64,000 nt of DNA from Myxococcota bacterium (GCA_046075485.1 JBJTQF010000040.1:7144-71143); one strand, 5' to 3'. Shown: positions 29,558-36,999, counted from the first letter of the stretch. Translations and numbers: made by a program. Notes: generated from the letters alone by a model not told the origin.

Positions 29558-31594
29558 ATGCACTTCTTCACCGCTCTTTGTGCGTTCCGAAGCGCCAGAC
29601 GCAGCCTTAGGCTCTGCGCGCTCCTGTTCACCCTGCTGCTGCCCTCGTCCGGCAGCGGACGTGAAGCCTTCTCGAGCCCCGGAGATCAAACATCTCCCGC
29701 CACGCTGAAGATTGAGTTTCGCGACAGTGCAACCGGTGTTCGTGTGCCGGCTCAACTGTGGCTTCGAGACCCCACGTCTTCAGAGCCCTCCGCATGGAGA
29801 CACGCGGAGCTGGACCAAGCGCAAGGACATCTGCGCCTTCCTCATCGTCCGGTGCCCCTCATGTTGCGGGTGGAGACCCCTGCTCATCATCCCCTCGAGA
29901 CCACACTCGAGGCCGACTATGACCCGGCACTGCCGCTGACGTTCTGGCTCGACCCCCTGAGTGTGCCAGAAGTGCTTCGTCCAGAGCGGATTCAAGCACA
30001 ACGGAGACCCGGCATGATGTTGCTTCACGGTCATGTCACCGACGACGTGACCGGACAGCCCCTCGCTCAGGTGGAGGTCTCGACCGAAAACACCCGGCTG
30101 AGCACCCGCACCCATGCCGATGGCTATTTTCAGCTCCTCGTTCCCGCGCCTGTCGCTCGTGGCGGCGATCATCTGCCAGAGCTGGAGACCCTCCAGCTCG
30201 ATGCACCGGGGTATCAACGTTATGTGCTCGGCGCCACCTTTTTGCTCGCCGGAGGTGATGCCCATGTTCTGGTGGCACTCTCTCCCGGTCAAGGGCTCAA
30301 AGGCCGCGATGATGCCCATAAGCTCCTCTACGATCTGAAGGGAGAAGCCGCAGAAACACCCCTGGAGGCAGGCGCTTCCACCTGCAAGAGCAGCGAGCAA
30401 GCCACGGTGGATCCTCTGGCAGCCCTCCAACGTTCCGGGACAACGGCCACCATTGCCGTGCCCTCCAGCATCAAGGTCGGCATGGGGTGCTCGTGCAAGA
30501 GCTGCTCGTCGGTCTCGGTCTACAGCCTCGAGCAGTATGTCAAAAATGGGCTCAACGACGAGTGGATCTCCTCATGGGGGAGCAGCTCGCTCAAAGCGGG
30601 CGCGGTGGCGTTCAGAAGTTATGGCGGCTGGTACGTGAGCCATCCCGTCAGCAGCAGCTTCGACATCTGCTCATCGACCTGCTGCCAGGTGATGGACACC
30701 GACACCACGTCGAGCACCAACAGCGCCGGAGACGCCACGGCTTCTCAAGTGCTCACGCAGGATAACAAGACCCTGTTTCGCTCAGAATACTCCGCCGAAA
30801 ACAACGCCTGTTACTGCTCCAACGGCTACGCCGGAGACCCCAACGCAAGCTGGCCCTGTCTCTCCGATTCTGTCTGCTCAGGCTCTTCGTGTAACGGACA
30901 TGGTCGAGGCATGTGTCAGTGGGGCTCGTCTCGCTGGGCCAGTCAGGGCAAGGACTATACGTGGATTCTCAACCACTACTACAACAACAACGGCAACCCC
31001 AGCGGCATGCGCTCGGCCTATATCGCCAACGGCTCGGCCTCCAGCGGCAGCAGCGGCACCACCACCGTGCTGGATTCGTTTGAGTCTGGAGAAGGACGCT
31101 TCAACACCGAGCCCACCTACTCCGGCTCGACGGTGGGAGTCGCGACCAGCTCCACCGCTGCCACCACCACCAGCCAAAAGAAAAATGGCACCGCCTCAGA
31201 GCTGATCACGCTGGTAGACAATACCTCCTCCAGCGCCAACTGGGAGGTGCGGTTCTTGTCCGCGAATGGGGATCCCGCTCAGAACGCCGCACTCTCCAAA
31301 GCAGGAGGCCGACTGGGGCTGTGGGTGTACACCTCCACCTCGGGGGTCTCGGTGGCGCTGAGTGTTGATGACTCCGATGGCACCGAACGCAGCGCCAAAA
31401 AATCCGTTACCGCCGGAAGCTGGCAGTATCTCGAGTGGAAACTCGATGACGGTGCTCAGTGGGATGCCTGGTACAACGGAAACGGCACGCTGGATAATAC
31501 CTCGTCTCTCAAGCTCGATGCGGTGTGGTTTTTCCGCACCAACAACAGCGACACGCTGAAGATCTACATCGACGATGTGACGTACAAAAAATAG
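29558..31594 (+). CDS. Secreted SpoIID/LytB-domain protein with a C-terminal domain (about 175 aa) shared with the Amidase_2 protein downstream
   Basis: The signal peptide is MHFFTALCAFRSARRSLRLCALLFTLLLPSSGSG. SpoIID-like motifs are LEQYVKNGLNDEWISSWGSSSLKAGAVAFRSYGGWYV..FDICSSTCCQVMD and GHGRGMCQWGSSRWASQGKDYTWILNHYY. After a Ser/Gly/Thr linker the tail runs VLDSFESGEGRFNTEPTYSGSTVG...IYIDDVTYKK. Confidence 0.7.
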   Translation: MHFFTALCAFRSARRSLRLCALLFTLLLPSSGSGREAFSSPGDQTSPATLKIEFRDSATGVRVPAQLWLRDPTSSEPSAWRHAELDQAQGHLRLPHRPVPLMLRVETPAHHPLETTLEADYDPALPLTFWLDPLSVPEVLRPERIQAQRRPGMMLLHGHVTDDVTGQPLAQVEVSTENTRLSTRTHADGYFQLLVPAPVARGGDHLPELETLQLDAPGYQRYVLGATFLLAGGDAHVLVALSPGQGLKGRDDAHKLLYDLKGEAAETPLEAGASTCKSSEQATVDPLAALQRSGTTATIAVPSSIKVGMGCSCKSCSSVSVYSLEQYVKNGLNDEWISSWGSSSLKAGAVAFRSYGGWYVSHPVSSSFDICSSTCCQVMDTDTTSSTNSAGDATASQVLTQDNKTLFRSEYSAENNACYCSNGYAGDPNASWPCLSDSVCSGSSCNGHGRGMCQWGSSRWASQGKDYTWILNHYYNNNGNPSGMRSAYIANGSASSGSSGTTTVLDSFESGEGRFNTEPTYSGSTVGVATSSTAATTTSQKKNGTASELITLVDNTSSSANWEVRFLSANGDPAQNAALSKAGGRLGLWVYTSTSGVSVALSVDDSDGTERSAKKSVTAGSWQYLEWKLDDGAQWDAWYNGNGTLDNTSSLKLDAVWFFRTNNSDTLKIYIDDVTYKK

Positions 31595-31719
31595 ACGGCG
31601 CTGAGCGCATGCGCGGCGGATGTCGGCGTAGAGAGATGTCGGCGTAGAGAAATGTCGGCGCAGAGAAAGGTGAGCTCAGGAAAGAGGCGGCTCGGCGGAA
31701 GGTCGTAAAAACCGGATGC

Positions 31720-34799: not shown

Positions 34800-35043
34800 G
34801 TTTGTTTCCCTCGTGTATCGCCAAAGGGCCATACGCCCTGCCTCTTCTCCTTCGGGAGAATCTCACGCCATTTGAGAGAGAATCTATCGAGCTCACGACT
34901 TGCCAACTTGGCATGAAAATTCAGCGGGTGTGGTTGGAGACGCACGCCCGGTATGGCTGGCGTTCGAAGCGATGGAAGGAATGCTGAGGAGATGGGCTGA
35001 CGTGGAGAGCAGGGCTTTGGAGGCTCTCCGCCTCGACCCCGGC

Positions 35044-36999
35044 TTACTTCTTATACTGCACGTCGTCGATGTAGATGTACACCGTGGAGCTGGTCTGAGC
35101 CCGCGAGAACATCAGCGCGTCAATGGTCACACTGGAGGCGTCGATGGTCCCATTGCCGTTGTACCAGTCGTTCCACTGAGCGGCATCGTCCAGCTTCCAC
35201 TCCAGATAGGTCCAGGCACTGGTCGGGATGGCCTTGCTGCTCCCCGACTCGATGCCACTGCCATCGTCGATCAGCACCGACGCGGAGACCCCACTGGAAG
35301 CGGTATACACCCAGAAGCCCACCTTCCCCCCACTCTTGCTCAAGGCGGTGTTCTGAGAGGGCGAACCAGAGCCTGACAACAACCGAACCTGCCAGTTGGA
35401 GCTGCTCGAGGTATTGTCCAGCAGCATCAGCCGCTCGGAATATGAGCCGTTCTTCTTCGCCGAGGTCGAACGCTCCGCCGTGCTGGAGGTCGAGATGCCC
35501 ACGGTGGAGCCAGAATAGGTAGGTGCCGTGTTGAAGTGACCTTCGCCACTCTCAAAGCTGTCCAAGATGGTGCTCGTGCCACTGGTCGAACCGCCCGTCG
35601 AGCCGCCCGTGGAACCGCCGGTGGAGCCTCCCGAGGTGGTGCCCTTCACCAAGCTGGCATAGTTCGGCCAGTTCCAGTATTTTCCCGGATCGGTGTGGGT
35701 CTGGTTCGGATAGTGCTGGTGGCCCTTGACGTTATATCCACTCAATACCTGCACGGTGCTGCTGGAGGGGCCATCGTAACAGGTGTTACAGTTGACCTTG
35801 CTGTTGCTCATGCAGATGTCGCGTGTCAGGGCCGCACTCGAGTTATACAATGCGGTGGTATAATACGAGCTGGTGTCCACATACCCTTCATGCTCGATGC
35901 CAATGGTGTACGGATTTTCAGAGCCCACATGCCACGCTTTGTCATACTCCCGCACCATCTGCGTCACTTGGCCGTCGGAGCTGCGCATGATGTAATGGGC
36001 GCTCACGTCGGCATCCGGGTTGCTACACCACGAGATGGCTCCCGAGTATGACCCCTGGGTGGTATGAATGGCCACATGGGTAATGCTCGTGCCGTTTCGT
36101 GAGGAATAATTCACCGTGGAGACCCACAAGGCCGGTGGATAATCGGTGGTGGCGGGTGCGGTCTTCTCAGCCGCCCCGTCAGAGACCTGTGCTCCACGCA
36201 CGCGGGCAGCAGACCCTTCAGCAGCAAGCGGCTCCACGACCGAATGAGCGCCAGCCGGGGCATAAACCCGGTCGCTGTCCACTTCATAACGCACCAGCGG
36301 AGCCCTCAGCAGCTCGAGGGTGGCAGGCTCAAAGGCCAGCTCCCACTCCACGGCTCGAGGTTCAATGCGGATGCCTTCGTCGTCGTGGCCTCGGTCGAGG
36401 GTCAACAGCACGTCGTAGACGTAACTCAGGCGAGCATAACGATCCGCTGCGGTGCGGTTGGGCAGGCCCGAAAAACGCTCGAGCACCGGTCGCAGGGCTT
36501 CGAGAGGGGCACCTTGCAGGCCCTCCTCCCGCATGAGCTGGGTCAGAAGCAGGGCTGCTGCTTCCACTTGAAGGCGAGGGCTGGCCAGGAGCACTTCTTC
36601 ACGCACGCCACGGGCGGAGGCGGCTTCGGCCACCCCATTGGAAAAACCACCCACGCCACGATAGAACCCCATCACGCCAAAGGTCTGCGGCATCCGATGA
36701 TGGCCCGCGTGAAGTCCTTCGGGCTGACGATTGACCCAGCGACTGCCCACAAAGCCGATGGCTTCCAATACACCCGCCGGGAGCTCGGGATGAGCACGCT
36801 GAACGTCCTGAAAGATCTGCTGGAGCTCCGCACGGGCGCGGGCGCGAGCAGTCTGATCGTCTCGTACCGCCTGCTGCACCTGCTCGGCGATGCGCTCTTG
36901 GTCCCACGTTGAGCGTTCCGGGTGAGGCTCCGCGGCCTGGAGCATGTTCAGTGGGGCCGTCAGCAGGCCCATCAGCAGGAACTTTTGGGTCCGCGACAT
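35044..36999 (-). CDS. Secreted N-acetylmuramoyl-L-alanine amidase (Amidase_2/PGRP fold) with the same C-terminal domain as the SpoIID-like protein
   Basis: The signal peptide is MSRTQKFLLMGLLTAPLNMLQA. Amidase_2 motifs are ITHVAIHTTQG...AHYIMRSSDGQVTQMVREYDKAWHVGSENPYTIGIEHEG...KGHQHYPNQTHTDPG. The C-terminal ILDSFESGEGHFNTAPTYSGSTVG...IYIDDVQYKK aligns with the tail of the 29558..31594 protein. Confidence 0.75.
   Translation of the reverse strand: MSRTQKFLLMGLLTAPLNMLQAAEPHPERSTWDQERIAEQVQQAVRDDQTARARARAELQQIFQDVQRAHPELPAGVLEAIGFVGSRWVNRQPEGLHAGHHRMPQTFGVMGFYRGVGGFSNGVAEAASARGVREEVLLASPRLQVEAAALLLTQLMREEGLQGAPLEALRPVLERFSGLPNRTAADRYARLSYVYDVLLTLDRGHDDEGIRIEPRAVEWELAFEPATLELLRAPLVRYEVDSDRVYAPAGAHSVVEPLAAEGSAARVRGAQVSDGAAEKTAPATTDYPPALWVSTVNYSSRNGTSITHVAIHTTQGSYSGAISWCSNPDADVSAHYIMRSSDGQVTQMVREYDKAWHVGSENPYTIGIEHEGYVDTSSYYTTALYNSSAALTRDICMSNSKVNCNTCYDGPSSSTVQVLSGYNVKGHQHYPNQTHTDPGKYWNWPNYASLVKGTTSGGSTGGSTGGSTGGSTSGTSTILDSFESGEGHFNTAPTYSGSTVGISTSSTAERSTSAKKNGSYSERLMLLDNTSSSSNWQVRLLSGSGSPSQNTALSKSGGKVGFWVYTASSGVSASVLIDDGSGIESGSSKAIPTSAWTYLEWKLDDAAQWNDWYNGNGTIDASSVTIDALMFSRAQTSSTVYIYIDDVQYKK

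Follow-up and report, generated by a model that had tools for sequence, protein, structure and literature searches.

Several described systems combine the elements found at the locus reported here. Jelly-roll carbohydrate-binding modules (CBMs; CBM4, CBM6, CBM11, CBM16, CBM22, CBM30 and CBM61, with a galactose-binding-domain-like fold) are appended through linkers to exported glycan-active enzymes, and the wall-binding domains of endolysins and bacteriocins (LysM/CBM50, SH3b, PG_binding_1 and Cpl-7) follow a catalytic domain and a linker at the C-terminus, one targeting domain being common to enzymes of different bond specificity. The SpoIIP-SpoIID(-SpoIIM) engulfment machinery of endospore formers pairs an amidase with a SpoIID-family lytic transglycosylase, and SpoIID of Clostridioides and Bacillus does not cleave peptidoglycan until the amidase has removed the peptides (PMC6221140). 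The septal pathway of E. coli uses AmiA/B/C, lytic transglycosylases, DigH and SPOR domains on denuded glycans, DigH being a hydrolase specific for denuded peptidoglycan strands (PMC12288456). Here we describe a C-terminal domain of 175 residues, designated X, that is carried by two predicted peptidoglycan enzymes, proteins A and B, in a stretch of 64,000 nucleotides from a Myxococcota bacterium (GCA_046075485.1 JBJTQF010000040.1:7144-71143; hereafter the window). We lean, by a little more than an even chance, towards X being a new CBM-like jelly-roll family that acts as the substrate-targeting module of an exported two-enzyme peptidoglycan-demolition pair.

Both proteins named in the first-pass annotation of the window, a SpoIID protein (29558-31594, +) and an Amidase_2 protein (35044-36999, -), were recovered as open reading frames (ORFs) with the corresponding Pfam domains. 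Its claim that the two enzymes end in a common domain also held, as BLASTP aligned residues 504-678 of A with residues 478-651 of B over 175 residues (108/175 identical, 62%; 78% positives; one gap; E 9e-70) and gave no alignment of any kind between the two proteins outside this region. The features are as follows.

29558-31594, + strand: protein A, 678 residues (ORF 29471-31594, likely ATG at 29558), SpoIID/LytB-type lytic transglycosylase with C-terminal X
30023-30148, + strand: CarboxypepD_reg-like Ig-type domain of A (residues 156-197; PF13715 E 2e-6 and PF13620 E 2e-5, both below gathering score)
30503-30988, + strand: SpoIID catalytic region of A (residues 316-477; Pfam match over residues 316-400, alignment to 4rwr)
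31028-31066, + strand: Ser/Gly/Thr linker of A, read from the translation
31067-31591, + strand: X domain, copy 1 (residues 504-678 of A; BLASTP, tblastn, structure model and family profile matches)
35044-36999, - strand: protein B, 651 residues (ORF 35044-37200, likely ATG at 36999), Amidase_2 amidase with C-terminal X
35047-35568, - strand: X domain, copy 2 (residues 478-651 of B; BLASTP and tblastn)
35569-35643, - strand: Ser/Gly/Thr linker of B, read from the translation
35680-36093, - strand: Amidase_2 catalytic domain of B (residues 303-440; Pfam, alignment to AmpD 1j3g)
36115-36939, - strand: conserved N-terminal region of B, of no known family (residues 21-295; family alignment)

These are the only two X copies of the whole window by tblastn, with the next best matches at E>0.5. 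Both are preceded by Ser/Gly/Thr linkers (NGSASSGSSGTTT in A and GTTSGGSTGGSTGGSTGGSTSGTST in B), and both proteins end in ...YIDDV.YKK directly before the stop codon. The coding DNA of the two copies is 64% identical, falling to 49% at third codon positions, with a longest exact run of 14 nt; the duplication is therefore old and has been maintained by selection on the protein. As judged from these sequences, the pair represents an old divergence under purifying selection and not an assembly artefact, and a recent repeat or gene conversion between the copies was ruled out by the same third-position identity and run length. X has a signature of its own (F.T.P..SGST.G, VR.LSG.G.P..N, DDSDG.E and W....GNG), and its N-terminal LD.FE and C-terminal YIDD[VI] strand motifs resemble what we take to be those of jelly-roll CBMs. 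Residues R64, W88, D103/D104, W121 and W134 (numbered within the domain) are among the positions at which X is conserved. The linker type varies among relatives, with X preceded by about 40 consecutive prolines rather than Ser/Gly/Thr at the end of a contig from a Lysobacteraceae metagenome-assembled genome (MAG; L001:2-664), where the protein (P0004) is a fragment ended by the contig end.

The catalytic portions of the two proteins are recognizable at different strengths. Protein A runs from a signal-peptide-like N-terminus (read by eye from sequence, as in B) through the CarboxypepD_reg-like domain, which passes its cut-off in the relatives P0019 and P0015, to the SpoIID domain, the linker and X. 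The Pfam SpoIID model PF08486 scores 40 bits (cut-off 23, E 6e-10), and the NCBIfam model TIGR02669 (SpoIID_LytB) scores 75.7 bits, below its cut-off of 83.3; A is therefore a divergent SpoIID_LytB member. In the alignment with B. anthracis SpoIID (4rwr), LEQYVKNGLNDEW is matched with MEEYVTGVVASEM and GHGRGMCQWGS with GHGVGMSQYGA. NDEW stands opposite ASEM at the catalytic glutamate, a segment that scores poorly, and the SpoIID catalytic motifs are thus apparently kept, the Glu by position only. The catalytic part of one relative, P0006, is 92% identical to A.

Protein B consists of a signal-peptide-like N-terminus, the unannotated conserved N-terminal region, Amidase_2, the linker and X. Its Amidase_2 match (PF01510) reaches 79.5 bits against a cut-off of 26 (E 3.8e-22) and covers the full model (model positions 2-131), and a match to the NCBIfam AmpD model is sub-threshold. 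Alignment with AmpD 1j3g places GHQH...HTDPG of B on GH...KTDPG, so that the second zinc-binding His and the Asp correspond; the first zinc-binding His (IHTTQG) lies outside the printed alignment and was assigned from sequence. The 275-residue N-terminal region is conserved in the whole amidase family with an invariant motif, LPxGxLEAIAFVxSRW...HHHMPQAxGVMGLY, gives no Pfam match and no PDB sequence match, and occurs in 18 of the 150 representative X proteins surveyed below. Its LPxGxLEAIAFVxSRW...GVMGLY stretch recalls motifs that we assume to be those of SLT lytic transglycosylases, with Gln/Gly at the position of the SLT catalytic Glu. The bacteriolytic amidase Ami of Lysobacter capsici (PMC12219114) was considered as a characterized relative and set aside, its mature form being only 270 residues long and of different architecture.

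Neither window copy of X has a Pfam-A match at E<=10, whether searched within the full protein or as an isolated domain, or an NCBIfam match at E<=1, and a profile of 51 sequences found no relative among PDB sequences; it is with respect to these three collections that we call X unnamed. For A, for B and for each X copy on its own, Pfam listed no match to LysM, SPOR, PG_binding_1 or SH3b at E<=10, which agrees with the first-pass statement that X is none of them (Pfam, NCBIfam). The X proteins share the layout of endolysins and bacteriocins described above, but X has no sequence match to any of their wall-binding domains, which are generally smaller and of other folds. Database names of X carriers follow the catalytic domain only ("N-acetylmuramoyl-L-alanine amidase", "peptidoglycan recognition family protein", "GH18 family chitinase", "family 10 glycosylhydrolase", "exopolysaccharide biosynthesis protein", "hypothetical protein").

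When 1.84 billion cluster representatives (clusters at 50% identity) were searched exhaustively with an HMMER profile, 426 X clusters were recovered at E<=1e-3, of which 290 reached E<=1e-10 and 73 reached E<=1e-30. For full-length protein B, 1921 relatives were recovered at E<=1e-10, and the 120 best of them cover 82-100% of the query at 43-67% identity. In GTDB species genomes, two X peptide patterns located 73 loci, mostly in Lysobacterales (Luteimonas, Lysobacter, Stenotrophomonas, Thermomonas, Dokdonella and Pseudoxanthomonas), with others in Microbulbifer, Holophagae and Bacteroidota (Niastella). Close relatives of the window's organism are lacking among these, a housekeeping acyl-CoA dehydrogenase reaching no more than 64% identity to named relatives, which are MAGs labelled Planctomycetota. 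A word-indexed, domain-only search had suggested that X was extremely rare (four proteins); this was a filter artefact, corrected by the profile search and the full-length amidase query. The domain had been called novel, and this stands in so far as it is unnamed in Pfam and NCBIfam, but it is not unique, with at least 426 clusters at 50% identity.

Structure prediction places X in a familiar fold class. An AlphaFold2 model from a 51-sequence alignment is an all-beta jelly roll of 12 strands (predicted local distance difference test score (pLDDT) 97.1, predicted template-modelling score (pTM) 0.92), superseding a mediocre first model from six sequences (pLDDT 74) and bearing out, as a prediction, the beta-sandwich that had been thought possible. 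Foldseek searches of the PDB returned 50 matches at E<=1e-3, mostly CBMs, at query TM scores (TMq) of 0.5-0.63. The top match is the CBM of the Bacillus mannanase 1wky (TMq 0.63), followed by the beta-sandwich CBM entry 2c26, CBM30, CBM4, CBM11, CBM16, CBM22, CBM61 and CBM X584, and the N-terminal CBM-like domain of GH50 agarases is also matched. X thus resembles the jelly-roll CBMs in predicted fold, in size (about 170 residues, 12 strands) and in its attachment through a linker to exported glycan-active enzymes. It differs from them in belonging to no Pfam CBM family, in identity (9-18%) and TM score (<=0.63), in its signature, and in a set of partners in which peptidoglycan hydrolases, NAGPA and GH18, and not enzymes of plant polysaccharides, predominate. 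A match to a well-known CBM or peptidoglycan-binding family, which the first-pass annotation had named as the outcome that would undercut it, was approached at the level of the superfamily (fold) and not of the family; by the model, X is an uncatalogued sequence family within a very familiar predicted fold class. Two leads from a six-sequence profile, a phage receptor-binding origin (match to the PRD1-type spike protein P5, E 0.006-0.02) and a CBM61 sequence match (E 0.03), vanished with the 51-sequence profile, and among viral structures (BFVD fold search) X matches only generic tail-fibre jelly rolls (TM<=0.58).

In order to see the company that X keeps, partner domains were counted in a Pfam scan of the best 150 of the 426 X representatives. 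NAGPA is present in 32 of these proteins, Amidase_2 in 23, GH18 in 21, GHL10 in 12, Amidase_3 in six, GH25 in five, DUF4015 in three, and M23, SpoIID and SLT in two each; GHL10 is the family of E. coli DigH (E 6e-136). Other carriers include a beta-lactamase-fold protein, a GH25 protein, a GH67 partner and one cohesin. In all the architectures that were classified (by jackhmmer), X follows the catalytic domain on its C-terminal side, in one to three copies, forming a discrete module after Amidase_2/3, SpoIID, GHL10, GH18, GH25 and NAGPA catalytic domains. Three copies stand in tandem in P0005, and X also occurs without a recognizable enzyme. The common theme of the partners is exported enzymes predicted to act on polymers containing N-acetylglucosamine (GlcNAc) or N-acetylmuramic acid (MurNAc), with unambiguous peptidoglycan hydrolases making up about a quarter to a third. 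In the close subfamily, whose X domains are 45-62% identical to the window copies, the partners that were classified are nearly all amidases or SpoIID proteins. This company appears to fit a cell-wall- or glycan-targeting role, and the possible cell-wall targeting put forward in the first-pass annotation is supported to that extent.

An amidase is repeatedly linked to a glycan cleaver, 3.4 kb apart in the window, adjacent in seven other loci and fused in two proteins. In seven Lysobacterales-type loci (L023, L026, L036, L049, L053, L057 and L063, from Luteimonas arsenica, L. padinae, L. colneyensis, L. salinisoli, L. endophytica, Proluteimonas luteida and one MAG), one strand carries an amidase-X gene with a SpoIID-X gene directly behind it; over 416-533 residues, the catalytic part of the SpoIID-X protein matches protein A at 36-41% identity. 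The fused proteins read Amidase_3, CarboxypepD_reg, X, Golvesin_C, GHL10, X, PKD and a type IX secretion system (T9SS) sorting tail (P0015), and Amidase_2, PKD, Golvesin_C, GHL10, X and a T9SS tail (P0035). The T9SS sorting tail is a Bacteroidota-type feature. As SpoIID needs amidase-denuded strands (PMC6221140), an amidase together with a denuded-strand cleaver, each with X, constitutes a repeated design.

The X copies of A and B also belong together in a neighbour-joining distance tree (about 170 columns, 100 bootstraps), in which the window-lineage copies and those of the close orthologues L076 and L077 group in 97 of 100 bootstraps, and SpoIID-borne X copies are monophyletic in none (0/100). 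Within a lineage, then, the X domains of the two enzymes appear to stay matched. Either X has moved separately between the two enzymes in different lineages, or the copies co-evolve, and both histories would fit a common ligand.

With the SpoIIP-SpoIID machinery, proteins A and B have in common the combination of an amidase and a SpoIID-family lytic transglycosylase, the SpoIID motifs kept in A and the pairing of the two genes in other genomes. They differ in that B is an Amidase_2 enzyme and not of the SpoIIP family, and in that the hosts of the X pair are diderm non-sporeformers, with T9SS-secreted relatives in Bacteroidota. No SpoIIM-like scaffold was identified with A and B, and co-localization would rest on the common glycan-binding module rather than on a membrane scaffold.

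Under the preferred reading, demolition would proceed in two steps. The Amidase_2 enzyme B would strip stem peptides from MurNAc, leaving denuded glycan strands, and the SpoIID-type lytic transglycosylase A would then depolymerize these strands. Each enzyme would be joined by its flexible Ser/Gly/Thr linker to its own copy of X, which would bind the GlcNAc-containing glycan backbone and so concentrate both activities on the same polymer. X is accordingly a candidate carbohydrate binder with the peptidoglycan backbone as its probable ligand, the enzymes would act in sequence, and their target would be a foreign or dead-cell wall and not that of the producer. T9SS sorting tails (Por_Secre_tail), found on 48 of the 150 X proteins, indicate that the family works largely outside the cell, which favours foreign or dead-cell walls or chitin-like detritus. 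The proposed two-step chemistry would parallel that of the E. coli septal pathway, whose DigH family (GHL10) is a recurrent X partner and is fused to amidases in P0015 and P0035; unlike the divisome-bound septal enzymes, the X proteins are predicted to be exported or secreted. X could take the role that SPOR has there, recognition of the glycan backbone, with specificity for denuded strands as a hypothetical addition. SPOR itself is a small alpha/beta fold unrelated to the jelly roll.

A bolder version, which we regard as tentative and rather doubtful, makes X an extracellular jelly-roll counterpart of SPOR that specifically recognizes peptide-free (denuded) strands and organizes a portable wall-demolition kit assembled several times. 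Such a kit would take the form of Amidase_2-X/SpoIID-X gene pairs, of Amidase_3 + X + GHL10 + X, or of Amidase_2 + GHL10 + X, and would serve in lysing competitors or mining dead-cell walls.

If the glycan strands of peptidoglycan are indeed what X binds, LysM, SH3b, SPOR, PG_binding and a few others would be joined by a new wall-targeting module of wide occurrence. The 175-residue unannotated tail on well over a thousand proteins labelled "amidase", "GH18 chitinase", "family 10 glycosylhydrolase" or "hypothetical" would also be accounted for, and diderm bacteria would be seen to export modular, substrate-tethered lytic enzymes. The recurring combinations of an amidase with a denuded-strand cleaver offer a testable model of how sacculi are dismantled by secreted enzyme sets, and a small, well-folding targeting domain might find use in engineered lysins.

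Several findings weigh against the preferred reading. The genes for A and B are convergent, 3.4 kb apart with four ORFs between them, and do not form an operon, and SpoIID-X lies within 6 kb in only seven of 62 amidase-X loci. The resemblance of X to PDB CBMs is only moderate (TM 0.5-0.63, root-mean-square deviation 4-7 A, 9-18% identity), no Pfam CBM model matches the window copies, and a weak CBM_6 match appears in only four of 51 diverse X domains (best E 1.2e-4, Pfam). Non-lectin jelly rolls are among the fold matches (the FlaA1 sheath protein, CIA30, MAM domains and phage tail fibres), and jelly rolls do serve non-lectin roles too. Literature searches yielded no description of X and no characterized member. 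The partner census covers the best 150 of the 426 representatives, and within it neither the largest class, NAGPA, nor the small X/PEP-CTERM proteins are known to be connected with peptidoglycan. X subfamilies may therefore differ in the ligands that they recognize, and the NAGPA-X and X/PEP-CTERM proteins may bind other glycans.

Some of the same proteins suggest that X might instead retain enzymes at the surface of the producer, anchoring them to its own envelope polymer (lipopolysaccharide, O-antigen, exopolysaccharide or outer-membrane vesicles) rather than recognizing a substrate. A PEP-CTERM motif is present in 12 of the 150 representatives, one of which, the 241-residue P0073, consists of X and this motif with no further Pfam domain; X sits between enzyme and tail in the T9SS proteins; the NAGPA-X proteins bear the exopolysaccharide label mentioned above; and eight dockerins (8/150) and the one cohesin are typical of surface-assembled proteins. 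We nevertheless consider retention unlikely, since partners with a common GlcNAc/MurNAc chemistry recur across differing envelopes (Lysobacterales, Bacteroidota, Holophagae and the lineage of the window), and a common substrate is an easier explanation of this than lineage-specific surface polymers. Anchoring is, moreover, already supplied by the T9SS and PEP-CTERM signals. Among the T9SS carriers, P0015, P0035 and P0033 are giant cargo proteins that combine peptidoglycan enzymes (Amidase_3 or Amidase_2, GHL10/DigH-like, and a beta-lactamase fold in this group) with the recently defined Golvesin_C, PKD repeats and X, and Golvesin_C may be another module of the X wall-enzyme toolkit.

Less probable again is that X binds chitin, a GlcNAc-phosphate-linked wall polymer or an environmental polysaccharide in the general scavenging of GlcNAc-rich detritus. 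GH18 (21) and NAGPA (32) partners do exceed the classical peptidoglycan hydrolases, a GH67 partner exists, and structural neighbours of X bind beta-glucans, mannan, galactan and agarose. The close subfamily to which the window copies belong is, however, almost entirely partnered with amidases or SpoIID proteins, and the amidase/GHL10 and amidase/SpoIID combinations point specifically to peptidoglycan.

We think it very improbable that X is a non-binding domain concerned with folding, secretion or auto-inhibition, such as an intramolecular chaperone or a plug that renders the wall hydrolases harmless in periplasmic transit. In favour of this, A and B have to cross a periplasm in which the producer has peptidoglycan of its own, the organism being diderm (TonB-type receptor at 1957-4851); secreted hydrolases of Gram-negative bacteria often have their C-terminal extensions processed; and the ligand of X is putative. 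Against it, X is attached by long flexible linkers, can be present as up to three tandem copies (P0005) or in proteins with no recognizable enzyme, and accompanies enzymes with unrelated active sites, all of which a single inhibitor would have to fit.

The genes that lie between those for A and B are as follows.

31720-32004, - strand: small Ala/Pro-rich putative lipoprotein, 94 residues (lipobox LTAC by eye; no Pfam match), bystander
32211-33119, + strand: unannotated protein of 303 residues (no Pfam match), bystander
33125-34678, - strand: membrane-anchored protein with an N-terminal membrane helix (probable start near 34510; HEAT_2 E 0.009, below cut-off), bystander
34530-34799, - strand: small putative lipoprotein, 89 residues (lipobox IMGC by eye; no Pfam match), bystander

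The first-pass annotation had pointed to the convergent setting of the two enzymes around this lipoprotein/membrane cluster, and membership of the cluster in the system was not upheld. In 77 related loci, none of the four intervening ORFs has a homologue beside the A/B pair, except for one gene in the closely related contig L077, and in seven genomes the amidase and SpoIID genes are adjacent on the same strand. The 94-residue lipoprotein gene has no homologue in the 77 loci, nor has the HEAT-like membrane protein in related loci; the 303-residue protein, in which a VVILGSG Rossmann-like motif is visible by eye only, has a 52%-identical homologue in L077 alone, at a distance of about 7 kb from the orthologue of the amidase. 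These genes are thus incidental and not a conserved part of the system. The surroundings of the amidase in 62 loci, searched for conserved neighbours and for immunity genes, showed only housekeeping synteny and spurious high-GC ORFs, and an Rfam scan of the window was negative for RNA elements.

Next to the amidase gene, 37358-41506 (+) encodes a 1382-residue protein with HEAT/Arm repeats, a weak Tox-PAAR-like match, a five-fold DAHT repeat and, at its C-terminus, an AHH (HNH/EndoVII) nuclease toxin domain, and the gene directly after it (41520-42335, +) matches the Imm11 immunity family (22.9 bits, cut-off 22.1). Together they look like a polymorphic toxin-immunity pair, divergent from the adjoining amidase gene, which hints at an antagonistic lifestyle; this is adjacency only and not evidence for the function of X. 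Elsewhere in the window, 8905-13686 (+) encodes a 1593-residue protein in which seven Cys-rich repeats of the MopE type ("putative metal-binding") occur together with Chlamydia-PMP repeats and regions of right-handed beta-helix, and the related contig L077 also has a MopE/FG-GAP protein. A 977-residue STAND-like protein (51109-54042, +) combines an AAA_16 ATPase, a MarR-type winged helix and TPR repeats, and a sugar-uptake operon (56881-63408, -) comprises a GH31 glycosidase, a MalK-type ABC ATPase, a permease and a solute-binding protein.

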